The translations under genes were made by a program, and so were the position numbers. Shown piece by piece: positions 1,152 to 57,638 of a stretch of DNA of 64,000 nt; positions within the stretch are counted from its first letter, which is position 1, and every line of letters begins with the position of its first letter. A model generated the notes under the pieces. The model saw only the letters and a list, made by a program, of their open reading frames with translations. It searched no databases and had not been told where the DNA came from. Source of the DNA: Candidatus Tanganyikabacteria bacterium (GTDB lineage: Bacteria > Cyanobacteriota > Sericytochromatia > S15B-MN24 > VGJW01); the NCBI GenBank assembly GCA_016867265.1, contig VGJW01000010.1, forward strand, positions 35,525 through 99,524, written 5' to 3'.

Positions 1152-1967
1152 GTGAATCCCATCGATGCGCTGATTCAGAGCGTGATGATCCCCGTCATCA
1201 GGTTCTTCCATGGCTCGCTGCCGTGGCACAACTATGGCCTTGCCATCGTCTGCCTGACGGTGCTGGTCAAGACCCTGCTTTTCCCGCTCAACGTCAAGCA
1301 GTTTTCGAGCATGCGCATCATGCAGCGCCTGCAGCCGAAGCTTCGCGAGTTGCAGGAGGCCCACAAGGACGATCCACCTGCCATGCAGGCCAAGATGATG
1401 GAGCTCTACAAGGAGCACAACACCACGCCGCTTTCGGGTTGCATGCCCGTGTTGTTCCAGCTGCCTGTGCTGTTCGCGCTCTATGGCTCATTGAACGACA
1501 AGAATCTGATCGCCAGCATCAAGGCGGCGGCCGATTCGGAGAGCAGCTTCCTGTTCATCCGCGACTTGCTGGCCGTCGGCATCAAGACCGGCTCGACCCT
1601 GCACTGGGACAACATCGCCCTCATCGCGATCTTCGCGTTCACCAGCTGGATGACGCAGAAGATGATGATGACGAACCCCAACGATCCTTTCCAGCGGCAG
1701 ATGCTGTTCATGTCGCCGCTTATGGCGCCGCTCTTCGGCTACCTGATGCCGTCGGGCGTCCTCCTCTACATCGTCGTGTCGGGCTTGGTCACCATCGTCC
1801 AGTACACGTATCTCCTCAGGCGCTTCCCGCCTGATCCGTCCCTGGCGACCCAGACGACCTTCGGCCCCGGCTTCGGCATGCCCAAGCCCGGCGCCCCGGG
1901 CGTCGTGGACGTCAAGGCCGAGCCCGGTCCCAATCGTGCCCAGCGTCGTCACGGAGGTGCTTCATGA
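1152..1967 (+). CDS. yidC: membrane protein insertase YidC (short form)
   Basis: 271 aa multi-TM protein with YidC/Oxa1 motifs (LLFPL..KQFSSMRIMQRLQPKLRELQEAHKDDP...MMELYKEHNTTPLSGCMPVLFQLPVLFALY); canonical rnpA-yidD-yidC-jag order. Confidence 0.85.
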   Translation: MNPIDALIQSVMIPVIRFFHGSLPWHNYGLAIVCLTVLVKTLLFPLNVKQFSSMRIMQRLQPKLRELQEAHKDDPPAMQAKMMELYKEHNTTPLSGCMPVLFQLPVLFALYGSLNDKNLIASIKAAADSESSFLFIRDLLAVGIKTGSTLHWDNIALIAIFAFTSWMTQKMMMTNPNDPFQRQMLFMSPLMAPLFGYLMPSGVLLYIVVSGLVTIVQYTYLLRRFPPDPSLATQTTFGPGFGMPKPGAPGVVDVKAEPGPNRAQRRHGGAS

Positions 1968-2554
1968 CTGCATCCACCATCCCTGCCCCCTTGGATCAAG
2001 CTCGGGACTGGCTGGTTCAGACGCTTCGGGCAATGGGCTTCGATCTTGCGGTGACGGCTTCCGTGACCGAGGAAGGGCCGCTTCTCCACATCGTCGACCA
2101 TCCCGACTCCGCCATGCTTATCGGGGCCCGGGGACAGACCCTCGATGCCTTCCAGGTGCTGGCGAACACGATGTTTCCGATCGAGGACGGCGAGCGTATC
2201 CGGGTCGATTGTGGTGACTATCGCGCGCGTCAGCAGGCAAGGCTTGCCGAGCAGGTTGCGGCTGCCGCCGCCGAGGCGCTCGAGCGGCAGGAAGGCGTCT
2301 GCTTGTCGCCGATGCATGCGGCGGACCGCAAGAAGGTGCACGACCTGGCCAAGGAGCATGCGGGCGTCGGTACGCTTTCGGTCGGCGAAGATCCGGCCCG
2401 CGCCGTCGTGATCAGCCCCTTGGATGCCGATGGCAAGCCCATGCCTTACGAGGGCCCCCTGCCCCAGCTGCCCCAGCGCGGTCGGGGTGGTCGCGGGCCC
2501 GGCGGTCGTGACCGCGATCGTGGTCGTCGCGGCGGGGGTCGCGACCGCGGCTGA
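1964..2554 (+). CDS. jag: Jag/KhpB RNA-binding protein (KH + R3H) with RGG-rich C-terminal tail
   Basis: Overlaps yidC stop; R3H region KKVHDLAKEHAGVGTLSVGEDPARAVVISP; unusual C-terminus RGRGGRGPGGRDRDRGRRGGGRDRG. Confidence 0.8.
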   Translation: MTASTIPAPLDQARDWLVQTLRAMGFDLAVTASVTEEGPLLHIVDHPDSAMLIGARGQTLDAFQVLANTMFPIEDGERIRVDCGDYRARQQARLAEQVAAAAAEALERQEGVCLSPMHAADRKKVHDLAKEHAGVGTLSVGEDPARAVVISPLDADGKPMPYEGPLPQLPQRGRGGRGPGGRDRDRGRRGGGRDRG

Positions 2555-2563
2555 CGCTGCCTC

Positions 2564-3910
2564 ATGGCAGAGACTATCGCGGCCCGTGTGACGCCTCCCG
2601 GACAGGGTGGTGTGGGCATCGTGCGGGTCTCTGGCCCTGAGGCCTGGTCCGTCGCCCGACGGGTCTTCCGGGCGCGTGGCGAGGGCCTGGATCGGACGCG
2701 TCGCGGCTTGGCCCTCGGGGCCTTGGTCTCGCCGCGGGATGGCGCCGTGATCGACGAGGTGCTGGCGCTTTGGTTTCCCGCACCGCGCAGCTACACGACG
2801 GAGGATGTCCTCGAAATCCAGGGGCATGGCGGGGTGATGGTGCAGGGTCGCGTGCTCGAGGCGGTCCTTGCGGCCGGGGCGCTCCCGGCCAGTCCGGGTG
2901 CCTTCACGCGGCGTGCGTTCCTGGGTGGACGGCTCGACCTGATGCAGGCCGAAGCCATCCATGACCTCATCACGGCACCGGGGGACCGCGCCCTCGAGGC
3001 GGCGCTCCGGCAGATGGACGGGGCGCTGTCCCGAATGGTGGCTGCTGCGCGTCAGGCGGTCATGGAGGGGGTGGCCGCGCTTGAAGGCAGCCTCGATTTT
3101 CCGGACGACGTTCCGGATGACGGACAACTCGCGGCAAGCCTGGGGGCCATCCGCGGCGAGTTGGCCGCTCTGGTCGGCACCGCAGGGGCCGGCCTCCGTG
3201 CCCGCGAGGGGTTGGACATCGTCCTCCTCGGTCGTCCGAATGCGGGCAAGTCATCGCTGCTCAACGCCCTGCTCGGCGAGGAACGGGCCTTGGTCGACGC
3301 CCAGCCCGGGACCACGCGGGACCGTATCGATGCGTTGTTGAGCGTGGGCGGCTATCCGGTCCGTCTCATCGACACGGCCGGCCTGCGCGAAGCCACGGAA
3401 GCACTCGAGGCCCGGGGCATCGCCATGGCGCGCGACGTGGCGCTTCGGGCGCCCATGCGCTTGTGGCTGGCCGGTGTGGACGAGGTTCCGCCTTGGCCGT
3501 GGGAAGAATCGGATGCCCCGGCCCATGCGTCTGATTGCGACCTCGTGATTCGTACCAAGGCGGATATCTTGTCCAAGGGCTCCGTCCCGGACGGCCCCGG
3601 TGATGTCTTGGTCTCGGCAGTGACGGGTGAAGGCCTGGATGACCTGCGTCGCGCCATCGTCGCGCGGATCGAGCCGCAGGAGGAACGCTTGGGTCACGGT
3701 GTTCTGGTGGACGCCCGTCACCGTGCGGTCCTCGAGCGGGCGATGGCCTGCCTCGACGAGGCTCGGGGTCTCGTTGCCGAGGGCTGGCCCGTCGATCTGG
3801 TGCTGTTGCCGATGAAGCGCGCGGCCCTGGAACTCGGGACGCTTACGGGGGCCGAGTTCAACGAGGACTTGCTCGATCAGGTCTTTGGCAAGTTCTGCAT
3901 CGGCAAGTAG
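2564..3910 (+). CDS. mnmE: tRNA modification GTPase MnmE
   Basis: 448 aa; G-domain [23 protein letters not shown]-terminal FCIGK motif diagnostic of MnmE/TrmE; no mnmG follows. Confidence 0.9.
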
Positions 3911-6408: not shown

Positions 6409-6512
6409 GGCAACCCCATATACCCCGAGGGCCCCGCAAAGCTAACCTCCACGCCTGACAGGGCCTCCGAGGGCGTAGAATGGGACGGTGCCGACGACAC
6501 GAGGAGGTGGCG

Positions 6513-8222
6513 ATGGCGACGCTGGACAAGCTGGACGAGACGGGCCTGGAGCGGTTACTGGCCGGGGAAGAGGGGCATCTCCTGCGCGCGCCGCGCGGTG
6601 CGACGCGGCTCTGCCGGGGCTGGGTCCAGGAGGCGGCCCTGCGGATGCTGCTGAACAACCTTGATCCTGAGGTGGCGGAACATCCGGAGCGTCTGGTGGT
6701 CTATGGCGGCACGGGCAAGGCGGCCCGGGGCTGGCCGGAGTTGCGGGCCATGGTGCGCACCCTGCTGACGCTCGCGGACGACGAGACGATGCTGGTGCAG
6801 TCGGGTCGGCCGGTCGGGGTTTTCCGGACGCATGCCGATGCGCCCCGGGTGCTCATCGCCAACAGCAACCTCGTCGGCAAGTGGGCCCATTGGGCGCATT
6901 TCCGAGACCTCGAGGACCGCGGCCTGATGATGTACGGCCAGATGACGGCCGGAAGCTGGATCTACATCGGGACGCAGGGGATTCTGCAGGGCACGTGGGA
7001 GACCTTTCGGGCGCTGGCCCGCAAGCATTTCGGCGGCACGCTCGCCGGCCGCTGGGTGCTGACGGCCGGCCTTGGCGGTATGGGTGGCGCCCAGCCCCTG
7101 GCCGTCACGATGAATGACGGCGTGGCCCTGGTGGTCGAGGTCGACGAGACGCGCATCCGGCGCCGCCTCGAGACACGCTACGTGATGGAGATGGCGACGG
7201 ACCTCGAGGACGCCGTGCAGCGGGTGCGGGCTGCGGTGGCCGAGCGTCGCCCCTTGTCCGTGGGGCTGCTGGGCAACATCGCCGAGGTCGCCCCCGAGCT
7301 GGTCCGGCGGGGCTGGATCCCCGACGTCGTGACCGACCAGACCTCGGCCCACGACCCGTTCTGCGGTTACTTGCCACCCGGAACCGATCCCCGCTCGGCC
7401 AAGGATCTGGCTGCTACCGACCCCGAGGGCTATGCCCGGCGCGTCGGCGAGGCGGCGGCCACCCACGTGCAGGCCATCCTCGCAATGATGGAGGCGGGGG
7501 CTGTCGCCTTCGACTATGGCAACAACCTGCGCCAGCTGGCCAAGGACCACGGCGTCGCCGACGCCTTCGACTATCCCGGCTTCATTCCCGCCTATATCCG
7601 GCCGCTGTTCTGCGAGGGCAAGGGACCGTTCCGCTGGGCGGCGCTGTCCGGCGACCCGGCCGACATCGCCCGCATCGATCGCTACATCCTCGAAGAGTTC
7701 GGTGCGGACGAAGATCTGGCTCACTGGATCCGCCTTGCCCGGGACCAGGTTGCCTTCCAGGGGTTGCCGGCCCGCATCTGCTGGCTTGGCTACGGGGACC
7801 GCGCCCGACTGGGCCGGGCCATCAATGACCTCGTCGCGCGAGGCGAGGTCTCGGCCCCGGTCGTCATCGGCCGGGACCATCTGGATTGCGGCTCGGTCGC
7901 CTCGCCCAACCGCGAGACCGAGGCGATGCGGGACGGCACGGACGCCGTGGCCGACTGGGTCTACCTGAATGCCCTCGTCAACACCTCGGGCGGTGCCTCG
8001 TGGGTCTCCCTGCATCACGGGGGCGGGGTCGGCATCGGCTATTCGCTGCACGCCGGCATGGTCATCGTCGCCGACGGCACGCCCGAGGCGGACCGCCGCC
8101 TGGAGCGCGTGCTGACCAGCGACCCCGGCATGGGCGTGATCCGTCATGCCGACGCCGGCTACGACGAGGCCGTCGCCTGTGCCGACGAACGGGGTGTCCG
8201 GCTCCCCATGCGGGAAGGCTGA
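6513..8222 (+). CDS. hutU: urocanate hydratase
   Basis: ATG after GAGGAGG; ~570 aa with urocanase hallmarks throughout ([13 protein letters not shown]-binding region); track ORF starts 33 nt earlier at a weaker start. Confidence 0.9.
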
Positions 8223-9499
8223 TGGTTGCGGCCGTCGACTGGTTGCTTCGCGGGGCGCGGCTGGTCACGCCTGCGGGCGAGGTCGGCCCCCTTGCCGGCA
8301 GCCGCCAGGGTGACCTCGTCATCCACGACCGAGGTGCCGTGGCCTTGGCCGGCGGCCGGATCGTGGCCGCGGGTCCCGAGGAGGCTTTGCTGCAGGCCGT
8401 GGGAACCGGACCGGGTACCCGCGAGGTCGACCTGGAAGGCCGGCTGCTGACGCCGGGCCTGGTCGACGCCCACACTCACCCCGTCTATGGGGCCATGCGC
8501 CTCGATGATTTCGAGCGTCGCGCGCGTGGCGCGACCTATGCCGAAATTCTCGCGGCGGGCGGCGGTATCCACGAGACCGTGCGGCGCACCCGTGAGGCGA
8601 TGGTGGCCGAGTTGGCGACAGGGCTCGAGGCACGGCTGGATCGATTTCTTGCCTGCGGCACGACCACGATCGAGGCCAAGAGCGGCTATGGCCTTGATAC
8701 GGCTGCCGAGCTGGCCCAGCTCAAAGCCATCGCCGCAGCCCGGCATCCGGTGGCACGGGTCCCCACTTGGCTGGGTGCCCACGCGGTGCCGCCCGGACGA
8801 GACCCCGATGAGGTCATCGACCAGCTCATCGGCGAAAGCCTGCCTGCGGTCGTCGCCCAAGGCATCGCCCGCTTCGCCGACATCTTCTGCGAGCATGGAG
8901 TCTACACGACTGGACAGGCCGAGCGCCTGCTTCTGGCGGCCCGCGCGCACGGTCTGGGCCTCAAGCTTCATGCGGACGAGCTGGTCGATACGGGCGGGGC
9001 GGCTCTTGCGGCCCGTCTCGGTGCCCTGAGCGCCGACCACCTGCATGTGGCCAACCCTAAGGGTTTGGCGGCCATGGCCGCAGCGGGCACCTTGGCCGTG
9101 CTCTTGCCGGGAACAAGCATGTTTCTCGGCATGCGTGAGCCGGCACCGGCCCGCGCGATGATCGAGGCGGGCGTGCCCGTCGCCGTGGCGACGGACCACA
9201 ATCCCGGTTCCTGTCCGGCTGTTTCCCTGCCCCTGATGATGACCCTGGCCGTGACGCAGTTGCGCCTGACGCCGGCCGAGGCTTTCGTGGCCACGACGGC
9301 CAACGGGGCTGCCGCCGTGGGCATGGGCGACCGCATCGGGCGCATCCGCCCGGGCATGCGGGCCGACGTCGTGGCGTGGGACCTGCACGATTGGCGCGAA
9401 CTTGCCTACCACGTGGGTTCGGTCCGTGTTGCGGGCGTATGGGTTGCCGGGCGTGGCGTGCGCGGCGCTCTGGCGCATGCGTCACAGGATGCGGGTTAG
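8222..9499 (+). CDS. hutI: imidazolonepropionase
   Basis: Internal ATG giving ATGA overlap with hutU stop; [19 protein letters not shown]...GLVDAHTHPVYG metal-dependent amidohydrolase; the 537-aa track ORF upstream part overlaps hutU. Confidence 0.9.
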   Translation: MVAAVDWLLRGARLVTPAGEVGPLAGSRQGDLVIHDRGAVALAGGRIVAAGPEEALLQAVGTGPGTREVDLEGRLLTPGLVDAHTHPVYGAMRLDDFERRARGATYAEILAAGGGIHETVRRTREAMVAELATGLEARLDRFLACGTTTIEAKSGYGLDTAAELAQLKAIAAARHPVARVPTWLGAHAVPPGRDPDEVIDQLIGESLPAVVAQGIARFADIFCEHGVYTTGQAERLLLAARAHGLGLKLHADELVDTGGAALAARLGALSADHLHVANPKGLAAMAAAGTLAVLLPGTSMFLGMREPAPARAMIEAGVPVAVATDHNPGSCPAVSLPLMMTLAVTQLRLTPAEAFVATTANGAAAVGMGDRIGRIRPGMRADVVAWDLHDWRELAYHVGSVRVAGVWVAGRGVRGALAHASQDAG

Positions 9500-9519
9500 G
9501 CAGGGGTTAGACTGCGGAC

Positions 9520-11142
9520 ATGGCCAAGCTCATCGAATGCGTACCCAACATCAGCGAGGGTCGTGACCCCGTCCGGATTGAGGCCGCGCGCGCCGCGCTG
9601 GCCCGGGACCCCCGCATCACGGTGCTCGACGTCAAGCCTGACGAGAACCACCACCGGACGGTGCTGACCTTCGCGGGTCCGGCCGAGGCGATGGAAGATG
9701 CCGTGCTCAGGCTTTTCGGGGAAGTCATGGCCTGGATCGACCTGCGCCAGCATCAGGGCGAGCATCCCCGGATGGGTGCCGTGGACGTCGTCCCCTTCGT
9801 GCCGCTGGGAGAGGCCACCATGGCCGATTGCACCGCATTGGCCGAGTCCGTGGCGCGGGTCGTGGCGGCGCGCTTCCAGGTGCCGGTCTACCTGTACGCC
9901 GAGGCCGCGCGCCGCCCCGAGCGCAAGGTGCTCGCCAACATCCGCAAGGGCGAGTTCGAGGGCCTCGCGGCCAAGATGGCCGACCCGGCGTGGGCGCCAG
10001 ACTTCGGCCCCGCGGCGCCCCATCCGACGGCGGGGGCGGTGGCCGTCGGCGCCCGTCCCTTCCTGATTGCCTACAACCTGCAACTCAACACCCGCGACGT
10101 GAAGGTCGCCCAGGAGATTGCCAAGGCCGTCCGAGCCTCGGGCGGCGGCCTGGCCAACGTCCAGGCGATGGGCGTTCACCTGGCCGACCGCGACGTGGCG
10201 CAGGTCTCGATGAACCTGCTGGATTACCGCAGGACGCCCATCCGCCGTGTCCAGGAGCTGGTCAAGGCCGAGGCGGCACGCTTCGGGGCGAGCGTGACGG
10301 ATGCCGAGATTGTCGGCCTCGTCCCCGAGGACGCCCTGCTCGGGGCGGCTGCTGATTACTTGCAGTTGCCGGGATCCTGCGCCGAACTCATCCTTGAGCG
10401 GCGCCTCGAGGGAGGGGCGCAGGCGGAACCCGAGGTCGGGGGCTACCAGCCCGAGCGCATCGGGGAGCTTCGGCTCGCCCGGTTCCTGGCCGACATGGTC
10501 TCTCGCCAGGCCGTCCCGGGTGGCGGCTGTGCCGCGGCCTTTGCCGGTGCCATGGGTGCCTCCCTTGTTGGCATGGTCGGGGCCCTGACCGAGGGTCGCA
10601 AGGGTTTCGAGAGCGTGGCCGTGACGGCCGAGAACCTGCGGGAGCAGGGCGGGGAGCTATCGGAGGCCCTGCTCAATGCCGTGGCCGATGACGCTGGCGC
10701 CTTCGAGAAGGTGATGGAGGGATTCCGGCTGCCCAAGGCCACGGATGAGGAGCGGGCGGCACGCACGGCCGCGCTCGAGGAGGCCAACCGGGGCGCGACC
10801 GAGGTTCCCCTGCAAGCTGCCCGCGAGGCTTTGGCTGCAGCCGAGTTGGCCTTGTCGGCGCTCGAGCACGGGGTGCCCCAGGCGGCATCCGATGCCGGCT
10901 GCGGGGCCTTGCTGGCCTTGGCGGGTGTCGAGGGTGCCCTGCTGAACGTCGCGATCAACCTGGGTGGCCTGGCGGACGCGGCCTGGGCGGCCGAGCGGCG
11001 CGAGGAAGCCGTGGCGATGCTGGTCCGTGCCGCTCGGCTGCGTGAGGACCTCTGGAGCTTGCTGCGGGCGCGCGTCCCGGTCATCGACGCGATGGCAGAG
11101 GAAGCCGCCGCGGCCCATCTTGCCGAGGGGGCTATTTCGTGA
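9520..11142 (+). CDS. ftcD: bifunctional glutamate formimidoyltransferase / formimidoyl-THF cyclodeaminase
   Basis: N-terminus MAKLIECVPNISEGRD is the formiminotransferase signature; C-terminal half (GGGCAAAFAGAMGASLVGMV) matches cyclodeaminase; 540 aa like the eukaryotic fused FTCD. Confidence 0.85.
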   Translation: MAKLIECVPNISEGRDPVRIEAARAALARDPRITVLDVKPDENHHRTVLTFAGPAEAMEDAVLRLFGEVMAWIDLRQHQGEHPRMGAVDVVPFVPLGEATMADCTALAESVARVVAARFQVPVYLYAEAARRPERKVLANIRKGEFEGLAAKMADPAWAPDFGPAAPHPTAGAVAVGARPFLIAYNLQLNTRDVKVAQEIAKAVRASGGGLANVQAMGVHLADRDVAQVSMNLLDYRRTPIRRVQELVKAEAARFGASVTDAEIVGLVPEDALLGAAADYLQLPGSCAELILERRLEGGAQAEPEVGGYQPERIGELRLARFLADMVSRQAVPGGGCAAAFAGAMGASLVGMVGALTEGRKGFESVAVTAENLREQGGELSEALLNAVADDAGAFEKVMEGFRLPKATDEERAARTAALEEANRGATEVPLQAAREALAAAELALSALEHGVPQAASDAGCGALLALAGVEGALLNVAINLGGLADAAWAAERREEAVAMLVRAARLREDLWSLLRARVPVIDAMAEEAAAAHLAEGAIS

Positions 11143-12680
11143 CGGGCGCAGGGCCGCTTGGCGTTCGGGGCCATGGCCTGACGCTGAGCGAGGTCCGGGA
11201 GGTCGCCCGCGAGGGTCGGCGCGCCGTGCTCGACGACGGCGCCCGCAGCCGGATGCAGCTGTCGCGCGACCGGATTGAGGCCGTGGTCCGGGGTGGTGAG
11301 GTCGTCTATGGCGTCAACACCGGATTCGGGGCCCTCAAGGACCGTCGCATCCCGGACGGCAGCCTGGCCCAGTTGCAGCAGAACCTGTTGCGCAGCCATG
11401 CGGCCGGCGTGGGCGAGCCGTTCCCGCCCGATGTGGTGCGGGCGATGCTGTTGTTGCGCGCCAATGCCCTGGCGGTGGGTGCGTCGGGCATCCGCCCGCT
11501 GGTCGTGGATCGCCTCCTCGAGATGCTGGCCCGGGACCTGTTGCCCGAGGTGCCCTGCCAGGGCTCCGTCGGGGCCTCGGGCGATCTGGCTCCGCTCGCA
11601 CATCTGGCCTTGCCACTCACGGGAGAGGGCTGGGTCCTGCACCGGGGCGTTCGCCGTCCCGCCACCGAGGCGCTTGCTGCCGAGGCGCTCGAGCCGCTCG
11701 TGCTCGAGGCCAAGGAGGGGCTCGCCCTGATCAACGGCACGCAGGCCATGACGGCTGTCGGTGTCCTCGCCGCCGAGGACGCGCTCGCGCTCTTCCGGCT
11801 CGCGGACGTGGTCGCGGCCCTTTCCGTCGATGCCTTGCTCGGATCGCGGCAGCCCTTCGATCCCGAGTTCCATGCCCTGCGACCCCATGCCGGCCAGGCG
11901 GCCAGCGCCGCCAACCTGTGGCGCCTGCTCGACGGTAGCCCGATCATTGCCTCGCACCTCGATTGCGACCGGGTGCAGGACCCTTACTCGTTGCGCTGCA
12001 CGCCCCAGGTCCACGGGGCCAGCCGCGATGCCCTGGACCATGTTCGCCGTGTGCTCGAGGTCGAAATCAACTCCGCGACGGACAACCCGCTGATCCTCCC
12101 GGGATCGGGGCAGGTCCTTACCGGCGGGCACTTCCACGGTCAACCCGTTGCCCTCGTCATGGATTTCCTCAAGGTCGCGGCCTGCGAGGTCGCCAACCTG
12201 TCGAGCTGCAGGCTCGAGCGCCTCGTCAACCCACACTACTCACAGGGCTTGCCGGCTTTCCTGACGCCGGACGGCGGCCTGCATTCGGGTTACATGATTG
12301 CCCAGTACACGGCGGCGGCCCTCGTCAGCGAGAACAAGGTCCTCGCTCATCCGGCCAGCGTGGATTCGATCCCGACGGGTGCCGGCCAAGAGGACCACGT
12401 AAGCATGGGCACGATCGCGGCACGCCAGGCGGCCCAAATCGTCGGGAACCTGACGCATGTGTTGGCCCTTGAATTGCTCTGTGCCATCCAGGCCCTTGGC
12501 TTCCGGGCCCCGCTCGTGCCGGGCGCTGCCGCGTTGGCGCTCGTTGCCGAGGTCCGGTGCAAGGTGCCCCCCCTTGCCGAGGACAGGCATGTGGGCGATG
12601 ACGTCGCGTCCCTGGTGCGCCTCGTGCGCGGGGGGCGTCTCCTCGCAGTTGCCGAAGAAGTCGTGGGGGCCCTCGCGTGA
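11139..12680 (+). CDS. hutH: histidine ammonia-lyase
   Basis: GTGA overlap with ftcD; MIO-forming GASGDLAPLAHLAL motif; 513 aa. Confidence 0.9.
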   Translation: MTGAGPLGVRGHGLTLSEVREVAREGRRAVLDDGARSRMQLSRDRIEAVVRGGEVVYGVNTGFGALKDRRIPDGSLAQLQQNLLRSHAAGVGEPFPPDVVRAMLLLRANALAVGASGIRPLVVDRLLEMLARDLLPEVPCQGSVGASGDLAPLAHLALPLTGEGWVLHRGVRRPATEALAAEALEPLVLEAKEGLALINGTQAMTAVGVLAAEDALALFRLADVVAALSVDALLGSRQPFDPEFHALRPHAGQAASAANLWRLLDGSPIIASHLDCDRVQDPYSLRCTPQVHGASRDALDHVRRVLEVEINSATDNPLILPGSGQVLTGGHFHGQPVALVMDFLKVAACEVANLSSCRLERLVNPHYSQGLPAFLTPDGGLHSGYMIAQYTAAALVSENKVLAHPASVDSIPTGAGQEDHVSMGTIAARQAAQIVGNLTHVLALELLCAIQALGFRAPLVPGAAALALVAEVRCKVPPLAEDRHVGDDVASLVRLVRGGRLLAVAEEVVGALA

Positions 12681-20290: not shown

Positions 20291-22081
20291 TCAGGTCTGG
20301 CCGGCCGGGTTTGCGGCCAGGCGGCAGCGAGTGATTTCGGCTTCGAGGTCTGCCAGGATCTGTCGCGCGCGTGTGACTTCGGCAGCGCGATCGGAGGCGG
20401 GTTCGACGTGGCGACGCCCGAAGGGGAAGAAGCGCCAACCTGACGGCCGGAGTTCGGGCGTTGCGGCCTCGAGGGTCGCCAGCTCCTGTCGCAGTTCCTC
20501 GGCACGCCGTGCCAGCTGATCCGCACGCGTGGCCATCAGGGTTCGTCTCGCGTCGTCCTCGGCCCGCTGTTCCTGTCGGTGTTGCCACGCCCTCAGGCGC
20601 GCACCGGCCTCGGCGCCAAGCGTCACGCGCCGGTCCTCAGGCAGGAGTTCCCAGAGCCTTCCCAGGCCCTCGCGCAGGGTCTCGCCTTCTGCGTCGTCCG
20701 ACATCACCCGGGCCATGCCTTGCCAGAGGGGCGATGCTTCCGTATCGATGCCGATAGGGCCTTCCGGCAGCCGTTCCAGCAGGGCGGCCCAGTCGGGGCC
20801 GAGCGGCCCCCGGGCTCGCTCGAGCCGGGCCACGGCCCTGGATGCCCGCCCCAGCCGATCGAGGCGCTCCGCGCGTCGCGGGGACTCCTGGCGCAGGGCG
20901 TCCCTCAAGATGCCCGCCACGACCGGCGCCAGCACCAGGTGTCCGTCATCGTCGTGATCGAGTGCTTCGGCGTGTGTCGTCAGCCAGAGGAAGGCCGATT
21001 GCGCCTCGCCGGGATCGGCCAGGACGATCTCGAGGGCATCCTGGCTGATGGGGCCTAGGAAGGCGGCGGCTTCCATCCAGCGGATGCCTTCCTCGGACTT
21101 CCACCAGCGGATGCGGCGGGCGGCGTGCTGCAGCGCAAGCCCGCGCCCCCTGCCGTCCGTGTCGCACCAGAGCGCCAGCAGGAACGGCAGGCCGCCGGTG
21201 GCTTCGAGGGCTTCCCCGGCCCGATTGGGTGCGAGGCCGCGTGCTTCGAGGTAGGCGGCCACGTCCTCGGGGCCGAACCGCGCAAGGTCCACTTCGCGAA
21301 TCTGGTGCATCAGGACGTCCCACCGGCGCAGGGGGTCCGTATCGCGCAGGCGTTGCCGGCCGCACACGAGCATGCGGAGGTCGATGCCCGAGCCCGGGGC
21401 GTCGAGCGTGGGCAGGCCCCAGGCGAGCAGCCAATGGCCCAGCGTGGGATGGAGTGCCTCGTGTGTGTCGAGGACCATCAGGACCCGGGCGGGGGGCTGG
21501 GCGACCGGCGCCTGCAGCAGTCGCTCCCAGCCCTGCTGGGGGCGCAGGCCTTCCTTGAGGTCCTCGCGCAATGCGTGTGCCAAGGCGCGCATCGGCTGCA
21601 GCATGAGGTCCTGTTCTTCGCGGTCCCTTGTCCACGCGTGCACCGCCGCTTCATAGCCCTGCCGCACCCGGGCATCCGGGGTCTGTCCGGTTTCTGCCGT
21701 GGCGTCCAGGGCTTCGTCGAGGCCGGCCAGAAGCCCCTCGGGGGCTCCGCCGTCGACAAGGCGGCCGCGCAACCTGCGCAGCATATGGAGGGCCTGGCGC
21801 AGCCGTGCGAAGCGCAGGGGGGGCAGGTCACGCGGGGCCACGGAGCGGTCCACGAGGCCTTCGAGCGCGTCCAGCAGGCCGACGCGCCCGCCCGTTTCGT
21901 CCAGGGCGAGGCGGGCCGTTTCGGGTGCGGCCTGGTCAAGGCGCTCGAGGACGACTTCCTTGAGCGTCGTCTTGCCGATGCCGCCGGGGCCGTGCAGGTT
22001 CACGAAACGTTTGCCCGGTGGGCCGGAAAGGTCACGGGCGACGGTGGCGAGCACCTGTTCGCGGCCGATGAAAAGGCGCAT
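20291..22081 (-). CDS. NB-ARC/STAND-like P-loop NTPase with C-terminal helical/coiled-coil region, no effector or HTH domain
   Basis: N-terminus MRLFIGREQVLATVARDL...KRFVNLHGPGGIGKTTL (Walker A), RVLMVLDTHE (Walker B); C-terminus Ala/Arg/Glu-rich coiled coil; convergent on dnaJ with 10-bp gap. Confidence 0.6.
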   Translation of the reverse strand: MRLFIGREQVLATVARDLSGPPGKRFVNLHGPGGIGKTTLKEVVLERLDQAAPETARLALDETGGRVGLLDALEGLVDRSVAPRDLPPLRFARLRQALHMLRRLRGRLVDGGAPEGLLAGLDEALDATAETGQTPDARVRQGYEAAVHAWTRDREEQDLMLQPMRALAHALREDLKEGLRPQQGWERLLQAPVAQPPARVLMVLDTHEALHPTLGHWLLAWGLPTLDAPGSGIDLRMLVCGRQRLRDTDPLRRWDVLMHQIREVDLARFGPEDVAAYLEARGLAPNRAGEALEATGGLPFLLALWCDTDGRGRGLALQHAARRIRWWKSEEGIRWMEAAAFLGPISQDALEIVLADPGEAQSAFLWLTTHAEALDHDDDGHLVLAPVVAGILRDALRQESPRRAERLDRLGRASRAVARLERARGPLGPDWAALLERLPEGPIGIDTEASPLWQGMARVMSDDAEGETLREGLGRLWELLPEDRRVTLGAEAGARLRAWQHRQEQRAEDDARRTLMATRADQLARRAEELRQELATLEAATPELRPSGWRFFPFGRRHVEPASDRAAEVTRARQILADLEAEITRCRLAANPAGQT

Positions 22082-22126: not shown

Positions 22127-22735
22127 GTGAAGCGTTTGCGCGTGCCGGCACGTCGCCTTGGCCTGACGGCGATCCTGCTGGCAGGCTGTGCCGGTGCCCC
22201 TGACCGCTATGTGGCCACGCTCGAGGTGGCCATGCTCGGGGCCGAGCCGGGGCGAAGGGTTGCCTTGGCCATCCGGGACGGCGTCTGGCGGGTCGATTTC
22301 CGGGATGCCCAAGGCAGCTTTGCCCTCGGTTGGCGAGGCCGCCCGCGCTGGGTGCTCTTTGCCGGTGGCTTGTCTCGCCAGATGGACCTCGAGCCGGTCG
22401 TGCGCCGCCACGGCTTGCCCGACCCCGGGGATCTGGCGACGGTACCCTTCTCGTCCAGCGCCTGGATGAAGGCCGCCCGGCCCATCGACGTGCCCGGTCG
22501 CATCTCGGGCGTGGCGTGTCGCCTTTGGCAATGCGAGGCCTCAGGGTCCGTGGAGCGGTTCTGGCTGGCCGAGGAGGACGGTGTGCCCCGGCGATTCGAG
22601 CGCGCGGCGCCGGACGGCACCCTGCTGGCGCAGCTTGACTGGCGCGACGTGGCGGTCGGGGGCGATTTGCCCGACGCCAGCTTCTCCGTTCCCGCAGGGA
22701 CCCTGGGCCTGCCTGCGCTGCCTTCCGGCATCTAG
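22127..22735 (+). CDS. lipoprotein (LolA/LolB-like fold suspected)
   Basis: GTG start; lipobox LTAILLAGC; 202 aa; the long 536-aa track ORF is only real in this C-terminal portion (its upstream part is antisense to the NTPase gene). Confidence 0.5.
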   Translation: MKRLRVPARRLGLTAILLAGCAGAPDRYVATLEVAMLGAEPGRRVALAIRDGVWRVDFRDAQGSFALGWRGRPRWVLFAGGLSRQMDLEPVVRRHGLPDPGDLATVPFSSSAWMKAARPIDVPGRISGVACRLWQCEASGSVERFWLAEEDGVPRRFERAAPDGTLLAQLDWRDVAVGGDLPDASFSVPAGTLGLPALPSGI

Positions 22736-22814
22736 CCGGCGGGATGTCCCGGTTGGGAGTTCCTGTTGGCTGTTGCGCGATTATCTAGGTCGCGACAAAA
22801 ATTATTACTGAAGC

Positions 22815-22848
22815 TTGACATTGCGGGCGGAGGGAGGTTGTCTATGGT
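22815..22848 (+). promoter_or_regulatory. candidate promoter for rhodopsin gene (-35 TTGACA at 22815-22820, -10 not cleanly resolved)
   Basis: AT-rich island (22780-22860) in a 70% GC genome, 40-70 nt upstream of the TTG start. Confidence 0.3.
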
Positions 22849-22886
22849 TTGTATACCTCTGACGGCTTCAGATTGGAGAAGCGCCC

Positions 22887-23672
22887 TTGAACGCCTTGCC
22901 CACATTGACAGCGGACCAGTTTTCGCTGGTCTACAACATTCTCAGCTTTACCATCGCGACCATGGGGGCCTCGTTCCTCTTCTTCGTGCTGGGCCGGCAG
23001 CAGGTCGGTATCCGCTACCGCCCGGCCCTGCTGGTCTCGGCGCTCGTCGTGGCGATCGCCTGCTACCACTACTTCCGCATCTTCGACAGCTTCGAAGCGG
23101 CCTATTCGCTTGTCGACGGCGCCTACAAGCCCAGCGGCAAGCCTTTCAATGACGCCTACCGGTATGTCGACTGGCTGTTGACGGTGCCCCTGCTGCTCGT
23201 TGAACTGGTCGCCGTCCTGCAGCTGTCGCGGACCGAGAGCGGCCCGATGCTTCGCAACTTGGCGATTGCGGCCGTCCTGATGATCGGCCTCGGCTACCCC
23301 GGTGAGATCGAGCACAACAACATGATGGTTCGTGGTGTCTGGGGCGCCCTCAGCAGCATCCCGTTTGCCTACATCCTGTATGTCTTGTGGGTCCGGCTCG
23401 GCGAAGCCGTCAAGGATCAGACCGATCGTGTCCGCAACCTGCTCGGCACCACGCGTCTTGTGCTCCTGGCCACCTGGGGCGTCTATCCCATCACCTACTT
23501 GCTGCCCCAGCTGGGCGTCGACACTCAGGCGGCGACGGTCGGCATCCAAGTGGGCTACGCGTTGGCAGACGTCGCAGCGAAGGCGGGCTACGGCCTCCTT
23601 ATCTACGCGATTGCCCGGGCCAAGTCCGAGGCGGACGGCAGCGCGCCCGACTTCCAGCCCGCGGCTGCCTGA
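22887..23672 (+). CDS. type-1 microbial rhodopsin, DTE-motif proton-pump type (proteorhodopsin/xanthorhodopsin/Gloeobacter-rhodopsin-like)
   Basis: TTG start 7 nt after GGAGA; helix C RYVDWLLTVPLLLVE (Asp, Thr +4, Glu +11 = DTE; Leu at the PR-105 tuning position); helix G ALADVAAKAGYGLLIY with Schiff-base Lys; seven predicted TM segments; 261 aa. Confidence 0.85.
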   Translation: MNALPTLTADQFSLVYNILSFTIATMGASFLFFVLGRQQVGIRYRPALLVSALVVAIACYHYFRIFDSFEAAYSLVDGAYKPSGKPFNDAYRYVDWLLTVPLLLVELVAVLQLSRTESGPMLRNLAIAAVLMIGLGYPGEIEHNNMMVRGVWGALSSIPFAYILYVLWVRLGEAVKDQTDRVRNLLGTTRLVLLATWGVYPITYLLPQLGVDTQAATVGIQVGYALADVAAKAGYGLLIYAIARAKSEADGSAPDFQPAAA

Positions 23673-23679
23673 TTGTTCG

Positions 23680-23712
23680 GGGCCCGGTCCGCGCTCAGCG
23701 CGGGCCGGGCCC
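23680..23712 (+). terminator. GC-rich hairpin (14-bp stem, CTCAG loop) after rhodopsin gene, no U-tract
   Basis: GGGCCCGGTCCGCG CTCAG CGCGGGCCGGGCCC, one G-U pair; 8 nt after stop codon. Confidence 0.45.
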
Positions 23713-23739
23713 TTCCCCATGAGAGAAAGGAGTCCCGCC

Positions 23740-23973
23740 TTGGAATTTGGACAGCGCGATTGGCTGAGGGTACCCATGGGTCTGGCTGCCGGCGGCGTGG
23801 CTGGTGCGGCCTTTGGTGCGGTTTTCGGCTGGCTGGCCTCTTGGTTCGCCATGGGGCCGGGGGCTTGGCAGGGGGTATGTGAATCAGCGCCGTGGTTCGC
23901 CGCGGTAGGTGCCCTTGGCGGTTTCCTGATTGGTCTCGAAAGGCCGGAAAAGGCAGGCCAGACCCGCGGTTGA
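23740..23973 (+). CDS. small two-TM glycine-zipper membrane protein (77 aa)
   Basis: TTG 7 nt after AAGGAG; GLAAGGVAGAAFGAVFGWLASWF ... WFAAVGALGGFLIGL; an ATG at 23719 in frame is an alternative start. Confidence 0.4.
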   Translation: MEFGQRDWLRVPMGLAAGGVAGAAFGAVFGWLASWFAMGPGAWQGVCESAPWFAAVGALGGFLIGLERPEKAGQTRG

Positions 23974-24045
23974 CCGGCCGGTCGGCCCGGCGGACGTGCG
24001 CTTGGTCATCGACCGGGCCTGTCGTCCGGAGGACAATCTGGTCCT

Positions 24046-24741
24046 ATGCACGATTTGCCCTTGCTCAAGTCGACGTTCCGGAGCTGTGGCCAACGCCTGC
24101 AGCGGACGGAGAGGATTGGCGGGGGCGGTGGCTGGGAAGACCTCTACACCGTCGTGGACTACGCGGCCTTTGCCCTGTCCCGGGAGCTTCCCGAATTGCC
24201 GTGCAGCGCCGGATGCGCAGGCTGTTGCCGCAGCAAGGCCCTGTTTCAGGTGACGCAACGGGAGTGGGAGCTGGTCCGCGAGGCCGTCGATGCGTGGCCT
24301 GAGGCACGCCGGGCCGATCTGGCGTGCCGGGTCGTGGCCGCGCATGGGCCCGATCGCGAAGCGCTCGAAGCCTTGGCGGCGGCCTGGGGGGAAGCGGGTC
24401 TGGGGGCGCGCATTCCGGTACCGGATACCCTGAGGGATGGCTGTCCCCTGCTGGGCGACGATGACATGTGCATGGTCTACGAAGCGCGGCCTCTCGTCTG
24501 CCGGGCTTATGGCGCCTTTTCCGTCACCCTCGACGATCGGCCCAGAGTGATGATCTGCCGGGAGTTCGGCCCGGACTTCCTCCAGGTCCTGCATGACACG
24601 GACATGCCCGAGCTGCCGTTGCCCGTCTACGAGCGTTACGTGAGCCGGCTGGGGGCCTTGCAGCCACCGGGGCCGCTTCGTCCCATGGCCCTGTGGTTGC
24701 TCGAGTGGGCAACGGCCATGCAGGGTGTGCAACCGGCCTGA
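24046..24741 (+). CDS. YkgJ/UPF0153-family Cys-cluster (CxxCxxCC) protein
   Basis: CSAGCAGCC motif plus downstream CPLLGDDDMCMVYEARPLVCRAYG; chosen over the antisense 282-aa ORF on this basis. Confidence 0.55.
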   Translation: MHDLPLLKSTFRSCGQRLQRTERIGGGGGWEDLYTVVDYAAFALSRELPELPCSAGCAGCCRSKALFQVTQREWELVREAVDAWPEARRADLACRVVAAHGPDREALEALAAAWGEAGLGARIPVPDTLRDGCPLLGDDDMCMVYEARPLVCRAYGAFSVTLDDRPRVMICREFGPDFLQVLHDTDMPELPLPVYERYVSRLGALQPPGPLRPMALWLLEWATAMQGVQPA

Positions 24742-45227: not shown

Positions 45228-45437
45228 TGAAAGCTTGGGCCCATCTCCTCTCCGAGGCCCCATGATCGCGAAGCGAAGCATCATTCTCCAACATGAGCGC
45301 GGGTTTTCCACCGAACAAACGCTCTCCCTTGATTGATCCGGGGAAAATTCGCAAAAAAGTGTGATCCATGCACCAGATTCTCCGAAATCGGGGTACACTT
45401 GGAGAAGAATCATCGGTACCACCAAGGAGGATGCCCC

Positions 45438-45608
45438 GTGCGGAAGATTCGTTCCGAGACCCAGAAGGGCCTGCAGACGTGCAAGTACTGCGTCCAGTGT
45501 TCGGCATGGTATCCCCTGACCGAGTTCTACATCGACCGCGCCAAGGCCGACGGTCTCCGCCCCTACTGCAAGGTGTGTGACATCGCCAAGGCCAAGCGGG
45601 CGGTCTGA
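45438..45608 (+). CDS. small zinc-ribbon protein (CxxC...CxxC), 56 aa
   Basis: GTG 7 nt after AAGGAGG; VRKIRSETQKGLQTCKYCVQCSAWYPLTEFYIDRAKADGLRPYCKVCDIAKAKRAV; track ORF (45333) extends upstream through a lower-GC leader. Confidence 0.45.
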   Translation: MRKIRSETQKGLQTCKYCVQCSAWYPLTEFYIDRAKADGLRPYCKVCDIAKAKRAV

Positions 45609-45750
45609 GCGCACTCGGCTGCTTTCGGGCCGCTTGCTCCAGCGGGGCAGGCGGCCTTTGCCATTGGGTGGCTTTCGCTCGGCCGGATAGGGGATGTGCC
45701 CAAGGGGCGCTGGACGTTCGGCCGCGGTCAATCCACCATGGACAGGAGAG

Positions 45751-46848
45751 GTGACCGGTTTGGCAAAGCGAGCGTTCATCACGGGAACGACGGGGCAGGA
45801 CGGTTCCTACCTGGCCGAGTTGTTGCTTGAGAAAGGTTATGAGGTACACGGCCTCAAGCGCCGGGCCTCCAGCTTCAACACCGAACGCGTGGATCACCTG
45901 TACCAGGACCCTCATGTCTCGGATCGCCGCTTCGTCCTCCATTACGGGGACCTGACGGATGCAACCAACCTCATCCGTATCGTTCAGGAAATACAGCCGG
46001 ACGAAATCTACAACCTTGCGGCCCAAAGCCACGTTGCGGTCTCTTTCGAGACGCCCGAATACACGGCAAATTCTGATGCAATTGGCGCGCTAAGGATTTT
46101 GGAGTCGATACGAATACTGCGCCTGGAAGATAAAACACGATTTTATCAGGCATCAACGTCGGAGATGTACGGAAAGGTGCAGTCCATACCGCAGGATGAG
46201 TCCACGCCGTTTTATCCGAGAAGCCCCTATGGTGTTGCCAAACTTTACGCTTATTGGATAGCCCGGAACTATAGGGAGGGCTACGGGATACACGCATCCA
46301 ATGGCATCCTGTTCAACCACGAGAGTCCGCGTCGGGGCGAGACGTTTGTTACGCGAAAGATAACGCGGGCAGTGGCTCGCATTCACCTGGGTCTCGAGGA
46401 CAAGTTGCATCTGGGTAACCTGAACGCCCTGCGCGACTGGGGTCACGCCCGTGACTACGTCGCAGCCATGTGGTTGATGCTGCAGCAGGATGAGCCTGAT
46501 GACTACGTCATTGCCACGGGCAGCCAGATTTCCGTCCGTCAGTTCGTCGAGCTTGCCTTTGCCGAGGTGGGTCAGGCCATCGTCTGGCAAGGTGATGGCG
46601 TCGACGAGCAGGGCCTGGATCCGGCCTCGGGTCGATGCCTGGTTGCCGTTGATCCCCGATATTTCCGGCCGACCGAAGTCGAGACCCTGCTGGGCAACCC
46701 GGCCAAGGCAAAGGCACGCCTTGGCTGGCAGCCTCGTATCTCCGTCGGGGAGCTGGCCCAGGAGATGGTCCAGCACGATCTGGCACAGGCGCGTCAGTTC
46801 AAGGTGGCCCGAGAGCAGGGCTTTGCGGTTCATGCGGCTCATGAATAA
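45751..46848 (+). CDS. gmd: GDP-mannose 4,6-dehydratase
   Basis: GTG after AGGAG; [27 protein letters not shown]...[10 protein letters not shown]...YAASK-like YGVAKLY; 365 aa; markedly lower GC (~50%) than surroundings. Confidence 0.9.
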
Positions 46849-47767
46849 GGATTCAAGGATTCTGGTCTTGGGCCACAGGGGCCTCGTCGGTTCGGCATTG
46901 GTTCGACGCCTGCGATCAGAGGGCCACGACCGTCTCCTCCAGCAGACGCGGCAAGATCTGGATCTGCGGGACTCCGTCGCCGTGCGGCGCTTCTTCCGGA
47001 CCGAACGTCCGGAGATCGTGTTCCTGGCGGCAGCCCGGGTCGGGGGTATCCTGGCCAATGACCGGGCTCCAGTGGATTTCCTGATGGAAAACATGGCAAT
47101 CCAGCAGAACGTCATTTCGGCAGCCCACGAAGCCGGCGTTGCCAAGCTGCTGTTCCTCGGATCGTCTTGCATCTACCCTCGGGATTGTGCCCAGCCGATT
47201 CGGGAGGAATATCTGCTTGGCGGACCGCTCGAACCAACCAACGAATGGTATGCCGTCGCCAAGATCGCGGGCATCAAGATGTGCCAGGCCTACCGCAAGC
47301 AATACGGTGCGGACTTCATCTCCGTGATGCCGACCAACCTCTATGGACCGGGGGACAACTTCGATCTCGAGACCTCCCATGTCCTTCCGGCCATGTTGCG
47401 CAAGTTTCACGAAGCCAGGGCCTCAGGCCTTCCCGTGCAGCTGTGGGGGACAGGATCACCGCGTCGCGAGTTCCTGCACGTCGACGATCTTGCCGATGCT
47501 TGCCTTCACCTGATGCGGTGCTATGCCGACGATCGTCCCATCAACGTGGGGGTCGGGGAAGATGTCTCCATTCGAGACCTTGCAGGACTGATGGCGAGAA
47601 TCACCGGTTTCGAGGGCGATGTCCTCTGGGACGCATCCAAGCCCGACGGGACGCCACGCAAGCTGCTGGATGTCTCCCGCCTGGCCGAGACGGGATGGTC
47701 GGCGCGGATTGGCCTCGAGGAGGGCATCCGGGAGACCTATCGGTGGTACCTGGCCCATCAGGCCTGA
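46841..47767 (+). CDS. fcl: GDP-L-fucose synthase (GDP-4-keto-6-deoxymannose 3,5-epimerase/4-reductase)
   Basis: ATG overlapping gmd stop; [39 protein letters not shown] motifs of Fcl/WcaG. Confidence 0.9.
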
Positions 47768-47774
47768 TGTTGCT

Positions 47775-49728: not shown

Positions 49729-49821
49729 TCGGGCTGATCCGGATGGGGGGCGAGGCAGATGCGGACCATGCCCTTGCTGTGGGACCCTATTCTAGCGCCC
49801 CGCCCGAAAAGGACGACAGCG

Positions 49822-51021: not shown

Positions 51022-51039
51022 GCCTGTTTCTGTTGTGGC

Positions 51040-57596: not shown

Positions 57597-57638
57597 AAGG
57601 TCTCCCGTCGGGCAGGGGGCGAGGCGTCGAAAGCCACG

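Follow-up and report, generated by a model that had tools for sequence, protein, structure and literature searches.

A 64,000-nucleotide stretch of DNA from Candidatus Tanganyikabacteria bacterium (contig VGJW01000010.1, positions 35,525 to 99,524; here called the window) contains a gene for a microbial rhodopsin of the xanthorhodopsin (XR) family. The rhodopsin is very probably an outward proton pump and its gene the first of a relocatable two-gene cassette, the second gene of which encodes an XR-linked, presumably accessory small protein of 77 amino acids (aa). On its own, the rhodopsin, already annotated in GenBank, adds one more member to a well-studied family; new here are the structure of the cassette, the empty-site polymorphism and a conserved, unnamed family of small proteins. 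This small protein family appears to be tied to XRs or to XR-carotenoid clusters in Sericytochromatia, Chloroflexota, Bacteroidota, Rhodothermota, Ignavibacteriota and Bdellovibrionota.

The window protein is an exact match to GenBank entry MBM3259549.1, annotated as a bacteriorhodopsin of 'Candidatus Sericytochromatia bacterium' and labelled 'Candidatus Tanganyikabacteria bacterium' in nr. The NCBI taxonomy places Tanganyikabacteria within the class Sericytochromatia of the Cyanobacteriota/Melainabacteria group. Sericytochromatia are described as the non-photosynthetic sister of the oxygenic cyanobacteria, lacking photosynthesis genes, and the sequences documented here point to genes for retinal-type light harvesting in this class. 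XRs of Sericytochromatia have come up before in one figure legend: a 2025 paper on cyanobacterial XRs assigns the remaining Cyanobacteriota XRs there to non-photosynthetic Sericytochromatia, without a relationship to true cyanobacterial XRs. The paper that named the lineage, which describes a freshwater clade of Sericytochromatia and terms the class non-photosynthetic, never mentions rhodopsin.

Family membership, residues and fold of the rhodopsin

The following features define the rhodopsin gene. Positions refer to the window, and designations of the type L007 denote the loci that were compared.

22887..23672, + strand: coding sequence of the XR-clade rhodopsin, 261 aa, TTG start (PF01036 match, identity to SrXR, AlphaFold2 model, ratio of non-synonymous to synonymous substitution rates, dN/dS)
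22875..22878, + strand: Shine-Dalgarno-like GGAG, 8 nt ahead of the rhodopsin TTG (read from the sequence; kept in L007 and L104)
23160..23204, + strand: helix C motif RYVDWLLTVPLLLVE with R92, D95 (acceptor), T99, L103 and E106 (donor) (alignment)
23343..23345, + strand: codon of Gly153, equivalent to SrXR Gly156, GR Gly178 and Kin4B8 Gly153 (alignment; role in the carotenoid fenestration from published work)
23568..23582, + strand: helix G DVAAK with D228 and the Schiff-base lysine K232 (alignment)

An earlier reading of this DNA from its letters alone (the sequence-only reading) had placed the start of the gene at 22780, which falls in the non-coding leader; the coding sequence begins at 22887. 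The same reading had named a profile hidden Markov model (HMM) score as the check on its claim of a rhodopsin. Residues 20-243 matched PF01036 (Bac_rhodopsin) with 133 bits (E 1.5e-38), far above the cut-off of 24.6 bits, and the NCBIfam scan of the rhodopsin gave no matching model. In a phmmer search against all PDB sequences, the highest scores were obtained for SrXR (306 bits), Kin4B8-XR (295), psXR (287), Gloeobacter rhodopsin (GR, 285) and Thermus rhodopsin (TR, 262). Lower matches included actinorhodopsin (9HFK, 222 bits), sodium and chloride pumps (~94), green proteorhodopsin (PR, 83) and bacteriorhodopsin (~60).

The alignment used for residue assignment reproduces the published numbering of GR (H87, D121, E132, G178, K257), Kin4B8 (G153, A205) and psXR (G172, L224), and it identified H61, R92, D95, W96, T99, L103, E106, G153, W197, Y200, P201, D228 and K232 in the window protein. 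Both motifs picked out in the sequence-only reading, RYVDWLLTVPLLLVE in helix C and DVAAK in helix G, are present at the positions listed above. The conserved lysine and aspartates on which that reading had staked its claim were recovered as K232, D95 and D228, the histidine partner of the counterion is H61, and the residue equivalent to XR Gly156, which it had asked to be inspected, is indeed a glycine (G153). D95, T99 and E106 form the DTE signature, as had been claimed, and are those expected of a pump-type microbial rhodopsin. An AlphaFold2 model built from 70 homologs reached a predicted local distance difference test (pLDDT) score of 90.8 and consists of seven helices (residues 9-39, 42-72, 91-111, 115-141, 146-174, 180-205 and 217-250, the last containing K232) and a small sheet formed by the N-terminus and the B-C loop. 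Foldseek gave TM-scores of 0.89-0.93 between this model and psXR, Kin4B8, SrXR, GR and TR, and the top 11 matches were all members of the XR family.

Comparison with individual family members refined this picture. SrXR (PDB 3DDL) is 59% identical over 249 residues, shares the H/R/D/W/T/E/D/K set and Gly156, and has the same fold including the N-terminal and B-C loop sheet (TM-score 0.91). It differs in the ring pocket, where F157, T160, M208 and M211 stand in place of A154, S157, L205 and Q208 of the window protein, and in its setting, as its host is a halophile whereas the window XR belongs to freshwater Sericytochromatia and lacks crtO or blh neighbors. GR (6NWD) and Pseudanabaena psXR (9WFA) are 57-58% identical, carry the same motif with Gly178 and Gly172 at the position of Gly153, have a leucine at the Kin4B8-A205 position (L205 in the window XR), and their genes are likewise published as having no neighboring blh or crt genes. 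They occupy a separate branch of the XR tree, whereas the window XR clusters with those of Chloroflexota, which agrees with the figure-legend statement on Sericytochromatia. Kin4B8-XR (7YTB/8I2Z), from a freshwater bdellovibrionotal lineage and equipped with a hydroxy-carotenoid antenna, is 59% identical and has a glycine of the same number and role, but A205 and Y209 instead of L205 and L209. Green PR shares the DTE motif, the histidine partner and the leucine at the 105-equivalent position; it is far more distant, with 83 bits and an identity of ~31% that is approximate. These values lie far below the XR matches and place the window protein outside the PR family sensu stricto. Because the PDB match scores, the residues and the modeled fold are all XR-like, the clade assignment, which the sequence-only reading had left open, is settled: judged by its sequence, the rhodopsin is an XR-family protein with an open-fenestration genotype.

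Near-complete conservation with five characterized pumps argues for a green-light-driven outward proton pump. Retinal would form a protonated Schiff base with K232; after photoisomerization, the proton would be passed to D95, paired with H61, while R92 and D228 would complete the counterion complex and E106 would reprotonate the Schiff base. Green light would in this way generate a proton-motive force that supplements the energy supply of a heterotroph. Gly153 would leave the lateral fenestration open, and a carotenoid ring could dock there on the retinal ring as an antenna. The glycine is also kept in L007, L104 and L106 and throughout the clade. In published XR work, a glycine at this position is required for carotenoid binding and is not sufficient for it, since another side chain can block the fenestration. 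The window protein has Q208 where Kin4B8 has a serine and SrXR, GR and psXR have a methionine, which may hint at an influence of this residue on the fenestration.

More than 7,900 database clusters matched the rhodopsin at E <1e-10. Relatives were ranked using one genome per GTDB species, which yielded 80 GTDB XR loci. The closest are a sister Sericytochromatia metagenome-assembled genome (MAG; L007) with 98% identity and three Chloroflexota-labelled MAGs with 71-75%; the clusters at 75% bear the names Chloroflexota and Chloroflexales. All remaining GTDB XRs, among them those of Bdellovibrionota, Myxococcota, Cyanobacteriia, Deinococcota and Bacteroidota, show at most 64% identity. In a neighbor-joining tree of 97 sequences, the window XR and L007 are sister to the Chloroflexota-type group in a ten-member clade with a bootstrap of 100/100, and GR and psXR lie elsewhere. 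Five residues (F69, E142, V175, K176 and V192) are fixed in this ten-member Sericytochromatia/Chloroflexota clade and occur in at most 5% of the other 86 aligned XRs. F69 replaces a near-universal tryptophan, and all members of the clade have the small gene. The relationship suggests that the XR gene was probably exchanged with Chloroflexota, in one direction or the other. An additional Sericytochromatia-labelled MAG with 28% GC (L035, JACMQJ010000141.1, 3486-5274) encodes an unrelated XR with 57% identity, a Blh gene directly downstream and no small partner. As this XR is unrelated to that of the window, XRs have been acquired at least twice within Sericytochromatia.

Cassette boundaries and occupied sites

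The cassette and the elements within it are as follows.

22732..23990, + strand: two-gene cassette, 1,259 bp, missing in a related Sericytochromatia MAG whose syntenic site is empty (flank homology)
22815..22820, + strand: TTGACA box, 66 nt upstream of the start codon, in the AT-rich leader (GC ~0.42-0.45; conserved in the window, L007 and L104)
23679..23713, + strand: G+C-rich hairpin of 16 bp, 7 nt past the rhodopsin stop codon, no U-tract (minimum free energy, MFE, ~-38 to -40 kcal/mol, z -3.05)
23726..23732, + strand: AAAGGAG Shine-Dalgarno sequence, 7 nt ahead of the TTG of the small open reading frame (ORF) (read from the sequence)
23740..23973, + strand: two-helix glycine-zipper membrane protein, 77 aa, TTG start (identical to the NCBI hypothetical protein MBM3259550.1; dN/dS; AlphaFold2)

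Homology of the flanks to a locus of the related MAG GCA_035285595.1 (L102) ends at 22731 and resumes at 23991. The gene order in this MAG is smc-scpA-scpB-ORF-ykgJ-lipoprotein ORF-NTPase-dnaJ-dnaK-grpE-hrcA, with orthologs that are 62-95% identical to those of the window, and ~66 nt lie between the stop codon of the lipoprotein ORF and the ATG of ykgJ at the empty site. A second locus of the same MAG, on another contig (L104), harbors an XR with 92.7% identity together with the small gene, inserted between a Na+/H+ exchanger-TrkA gene and a glycosyltransferase gene. The site is empty in L102 and L103 and filled in L007 and L106, L104 represents a relocated copy, and a third lineage (GCA_035285865.1) has the filled site as found in the window. 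The boundaries of the cassette and its occupation of different sites in sister genomes are direct observations. At the same site, the cassette is found in three members of the lineage whose SMC proteins differ by up to 11%.

The ribosome-binding site of the XR gene, the TTGACA box, a GGAG(G/T)TTGTCTA block and the hairpin behind the XR gene are conserved across all three contexts. As the leader blocks and the hairpin travel with the XR gene, the relocatable unit comprises the leader, the XR gene, the hairpin and the small ORF, ~1.26 kb in all. The AT-rich leader that the sequence-only reading had noticed is part of this unit. Neither terminal inverted repeats nor a target-site duplication nor a mobile-element gene was found at the cassette ends. 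An exact 10-nt direct repeat, CGATTTGCCC, is located at 22663-22672 and 24051-24060, ~60-70 nt outside the cassette boundaries; it was rejected as an insertion mark, being off the junctions, and by chance alone 1.5 kb of sequence should contain approximately one repeat of this kind.

The sequence-only reading had raised the possibility of a recently inserted single-gene acquisition. An insertion relative to the empty site of the related MAG is indeed what was found, but it consists of two genes with their own upstream region, and it is not recent. The codon usage of the XR gene is host-like, with a G+C content at third codon positions (GC3) of 0.86 that makes it the 10th most host-like of 40 genes, alongside dnaJ and rpoD, and comparison with the 98% identical sister L007 gave a dS of 0.35 and a dN/dS of 0.03; a recent insertion was rejected for these reasons. 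The same data bear on the suggestion that the rhodopsin is not truly a Sericytochromatia gene and either came recently from Chloroflexota or sits on a chimeric or misbinned contig. The Chloroflexota labels of the nearest outside XRs (71-75%) and the fully supported ten-member clade would fit such an origin. It is nevertheless extremely unlikely, as housekeeping genes surround the XR gene on contigs that reach 206 kb and come from many independent runs, its host-like codons contrast with Chloroflexota XR loci of 51-56% GC (68% in the window), and four separately assembled Sericytochromatia MAGs carry the XR with 92-98% identity. DnaK, DnaJ, ScpB and the NTPase of the window are found in the record set of MBM3259549.1, with contigs of up to 129-206 kb.

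The upstream region of the XR gene had been described as the most AT-rich intergenic stretch of the window. It ranks only fifth (GC 0.42-0.49 in 60-, 100- and 150-bp windows), and stretches of lower GC content lie at ~52.8 kb, 30.3 kb, 46.1 kb and 45.3 kb. The TTGACA sequence reported in it is present at 22815-22820 and is conserved together with the GGAG(G/T)TTGTCTA block in the window, L007 and the relocated copy L104, which suggests that the box may function in a promoter.

The hairpin between the two genes is preserved in L104 through compensatory changes. A strong hairpin recurs at this point in 19 of the 20 loci that have a gap between XR and the small gene, and its sequences are unrelated between clades. 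The exception is L073 (MFE -0.7); in two further loci (L011, L051) the genes for XR and small protein overlap. Chloroflexota loci have a T-tract after the hairpin, which is not present in the window. The hairpin probably either sets an expression ratio of high XR and low partner or simply terminates XR transcription. In the former case, XR mRNA would accumulate and the small gene would be read through at a lower level.

The small protein family linked to xanthorhodopsins

The small ORF begins 67 nt downstream of the XR stop codon. Relative to L007 it shows 32 synonymous and 5 non-synonymous differences (dN/dS 0.026) and is a real gene under purifying selection. Its dS against L007 (1.26) is above that of the adjacent XR gene (0.35), a value from only 69-70 codons that may be noise. 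The AlphaFold2 model (pLDDT 80) consists of two helices (residues 10-33 and 42-66) joined by a GP loop, with ~10 residues at each end.

Members of the family were defined as proteins of 58-110 aa with the pattern G-x2-FG-x2-FG-x2-A-x2-F in helix 1, a GP-x4-G loop and F-x3-G in helix 2, encoded beside an XR gene or in an XR-carotenoid cluster, and the 77-aa protein shows all of these properties. Among 60 sequences of the family, G22, F25, G26, G39, P40 and F53 are invariant and A23, F29, G30, A33, F36, G45, W50, W52, A54 and G57 nearly so. No Pfam or NCBIfam model scored above its cut-off. The best was Gly-zipper_YMGG (PF13441) with 24.1 bits against a cut-off of 28.9, and other family members score lower on it or not at all. 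A GxxxGxxxG-type helix face is shared with glycine-zipper proteins (PF13441; Romo1/Tim17-like hairpins), and the resemblance to glycine-zipper, Tim22/23 and complex-I hairpins is weak both in sequence (24 bits, sub-threshold) and in Foldseek. In contrast to those families, all of whose curated cut-offs it misses, the small protein has a specific GP...GI.ES loop and a WWF motif in helix 2. A Foldseek search of the model against the PDB returned generic hairpins only (E >=1.6). In a profile search of 1.84 billion cluster representatives, 63 clusters were found at E <=0.001, nearly all of them 58-109 aa long; the sole longer match (180 aa) was also the weakest.

The small gene is present in 14 of the 80 GTDB XR loci, spread over at least six phyla. 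It immediately follows the XR gene in the relatives from Chloroflexota, in two unlabelled relatives (L090 and L093) and in more distant loci that bear the labels Bacteroidota, Chitinophagales, Rhodothermaceae, Ignavibacteria and Deltaproteobacteria. In Bdellovibrionota/Oligoflexia loci it is found a few kb from the XR gene inside the attached carotenoid cluster, where its neighbors are crtE/I/B, a crtY-blh fusion, genes for a glycosyltransferase and an acyltransferase, a CruF-like gene and an FA_desaturase-type (crtW-like) gene. In L100 the small gene ends a same-strand string of RPE65, lipocalin and SDR genes, and in some loci its reading frame overlaps crtW-like or lycopene-cyclase genes. 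None of the Cyanobacteriia XR loci retrieved contained it. Searches anchored on the small protein led to an XR in eight of eight cases. Four of these were loci from a metagenome scan with the small protein, all four with an XR gene directly upstream. The other four were family members on long contigs, picked irrespective of rhodopsin, and each had a PF01036 gene no more than 6.5 kb away; in two of them the small gene comes straight after the XR gene, and in the other two it sits amid carotenoid genes. In every context examined, the small gene adjoins an XR gene or is part of an XR-carotenoid cluster. The distances among XRs and among the small proteins are correlated (Mantel r 0.70, 0 of 2000 permutations as high), also after collapsing close relatives (r 0.27, 16 of 2000 as high). 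The status of the Gly156 position is no discriminator, as a glycine is found in 25 of 25 XRs with the small gene and in 67 of 72 without it.

The strict company of XR genes and the overlap with carotenoid or retinal enzyme genes in some phyla argue for an accessory role in the XR module, in which the small protein would be non-essential. The most likely roles, suggested by the gene context and the flat Gly/Phe face of the helices, are the loading of chromophore or antenna, or service as a membrane-embedded, lipid-facing subunit that packs on the pump. A direct physical or functional partnership with the XR is possible, though rather doubtful, and so is its most specific form, in which the 77-aa protein is a dedicated membrane partner of a subset of XRs that either packs on the lipid-facing helices E/F, the carotenoid side, to hold or load the antenna or retinal, or sets the oligomeric state. 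If this is true, XR phototrophy in these lineages would be a two-protein, horizontally mobile module that brings light harvesting into a Cyanobacteriota lineage labelled non-photosynthetic. Within the limited set of papers covered, no report linking the small protein to XRs was found. We know of no accessory subunit of a bacterial proton-pumping rhodopsin, and the small protein would be the first if it acts on the pump or its chromophores. An action on the pump could also account for differences between native and heterologously expressed XRs.

The opposite explanation holds that the XR is a stand-alone pump and the small ORF an unrelated membrane peptide, kept by co-transfer and without a role in phototrophy. 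The terminator-like hairpin between the genes, the differing codon usage of the small ORF, the function of XRs alone in E. coli and the many XR loci without the small gene speak for it. It does not readily explain a linkage that extends over at least six phyla in different arrangements (directly downstream, or in crt clusters several kb away) or the recovery of an XR in all eight anchored searches for a family of only 63 clusters that occurs essentially nowhere else in the contexts sampled. Strong purifying selection on the small ORF, its co-divergence with the XR and the joint movement of both genes within Sericytochromatia likewise argue against it, and this explanation is considered unlikely.

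The arrangement is also reminiscent of sensory rhodopsins. Anabaena sensory rhodopsin (ASR) is co-transcribed with a 14-kDa transducer (ASRT), a small protein that is encoded directly downstream and acts with the rhodopsin. By analogy, the window rhodopsin might be a photosensor and the two-helix protein a minimal membrane transducer, as in ASR-ASRT or in SRII-HtrII, whose Htr transducer the two transmembrane helices recall. One XR-family gene has in fact been proposed in the literature to encode a sensor owing to a neighboring histidine kinase. However, ASRT is soluble and serves a sensor, whereas the small protein is a membrane hairpin beside a pump-type XR, and the two are related neither in sequence nor in fold. 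A cytoplasmic domain is missing from the small protein, signaling genes are absent from the cassette, the donor E106, the acceptor D95 and His61 are all kept, and the closest characterized relatives (55-59% identity) are all pumps. A sensory function is therefore very unlikely.

Several points nevertheless weigh against a pump and its accessory protein encoded in one cassette. The connection between the small gene and the XR is a genomic one only, and 66 of the 80 XR loci have no small gene in their flanks. As psXR and Kin4B8 are also published to pump when expressed alone in E. coli, basic pumping cannot depend on the small protein. Among 40 genes, codon choice is least host-like in the small ORF (GC3 0.63, compared with 0.75-0.92); with so few codons (n=69), this may be noise. 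If the hairpin acts as a full terminator, the small gene would need a promoter of its own. Upstream of the XR gene, a scan for the sigma-70 consensus gave no -10 element at 16-18 nt from the TTGACA box, nor was a convincing one seen by eye. Gly153 by itself does not allow carotenoid binding to be predicted, since a different side chain can close the fenestration. Finally, the ~74 kb covered (the 64 kb of the window and ~10 kb further upstream) yielded no blh, RPE65 or crt gene, which leaves the chromophore supply unproven.

Chromophore genes and the gene neighborhood

The absence of blh and crt genes from the 64 kb had already been claimed in the sequence-only reading and was borne out by Pfam scans of ~40 ORFs and by a Blh HMM, which had no match in six frames. 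This HMM was built from the neighbors of other XR genes and recovers the PF15461-annotated genes of L098-L100. Neither blh (PF15461) nor crt genes were detected by the same means in L087 or in the sister loci L007, L104 and L106. Retinal must come from genes outside the window or from the environment. The missing genes might be taken to indicate a functionless opsin relic in an organism unable to make retinal. Purifying selection on the XR gene (dN/dS 0.03) and catalytic residues that are intact in four lineages make this most improbable. Furthermore, a missing adjacent blh is not evidence of a defect, as it is the majority state among XR loci (53 of 80 without blh in their flanks, 27 with it) and has also been reported for cyanobacterial XRs. 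A different situation is seen in the Bdellovibrionota/Oligoflexia-type loci L098 (3765-13536), L100 (7209-20004), L012, L013, L054 and L066, where the XR gene is located inside a carotenoid supercluster. Its genes (crtE, crtI, crtB, a lycopene-cyclase/Blh fusion, a GT2 glycosyltransferase, an acyltransferase, a CruF-like Caroten_synth gene and an FA_desaturase-type, crtW-like gene) suggest a glycosylated, acylated keto-carotenoid similar to salinixanthin.

Two genes flank the cassette directly.

22127..22735, + strand: left flank gene, ORF of 202 aa bearing the lipoprotein-type signal LLAGC (MBM3259548.1; outside the cassette; also at the empty site)
24046..24741, + strand: right flank gene, YkgJ-family CxxCxxCC protein (PF03692, 27.2 bits; outside the cassette; adjoins the lipoprotein ORF at the empty site)

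The wider neighborhood is as the sequence-only reading had described it, with hrcA-grpE-dnaK-dnaJ and an AAA_22/AAA_16 NTPase gene on one side and scpB-scpA-smc on the other. Three same-strand neighbors had been overlooked, namely the 202-aa lipoprotein-like ORF, for which Pfam gave no match, the 77-aa ORF and the YkgJ-family gene. The 202-aa ORF, ykgJ and a 111-aa ORF were rejected as operon partners of the XR gene, since all of them occur around the empty site and none is found at other XR loci. The NTPase gene beside the chaperone block (20291-22081, - strand) is divergent and encodes a P-loop protein of 596 aa with AAA_22/AAA_16 and a weak NB-ARC match. It evolves much faster than its neighbors (92%, 75% and 62% identity in three sister lineages, compared with 95-98% for DnaK) and has only 9 database relatives at E <1e-20.

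Rfam and tRNA scans of the window returned nothing. The start of the window lies ~1 kb downstream of rpmH-rnpA-yidD, followed by yidC-jag-mnmE (window 1152-3910; upstream extension in L087), and dnaA and dnaN are found just beyond in divergent orientation. As the window start adjoins rpmH-rnpA-yidD-yidC next to dnaA-dnaN, the rhodopsin cassette is placed ~25 kb from the presumed replication origin. Histidine-utilization genes (6480-12680; urocanase, formiminotransferase-cyclodeaminase and histidine ammonia-lyase) precede nanE/ROK sugar genes, which fits a heterotrophic lifestyle. A polysaccharide island of lower GC (45300-58900, gene GC3 ~0.75) contains genes for an epimerase, two GT1 glycosyltransferases, a hexapeptide transferase, a GNVR chain-length protein and UDP-glucose dehydrogenase. 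On its - strand are a GT-like ORF (52179-53585), an O-antigen-polymerase-like ORF with multiple transmembrane segments (53288-54844) and a flippase-like ORF (54511-56070). The most AT-rich stretches of the window (52783-52842, 46091-46150 and 45329-45388) are located in this island.

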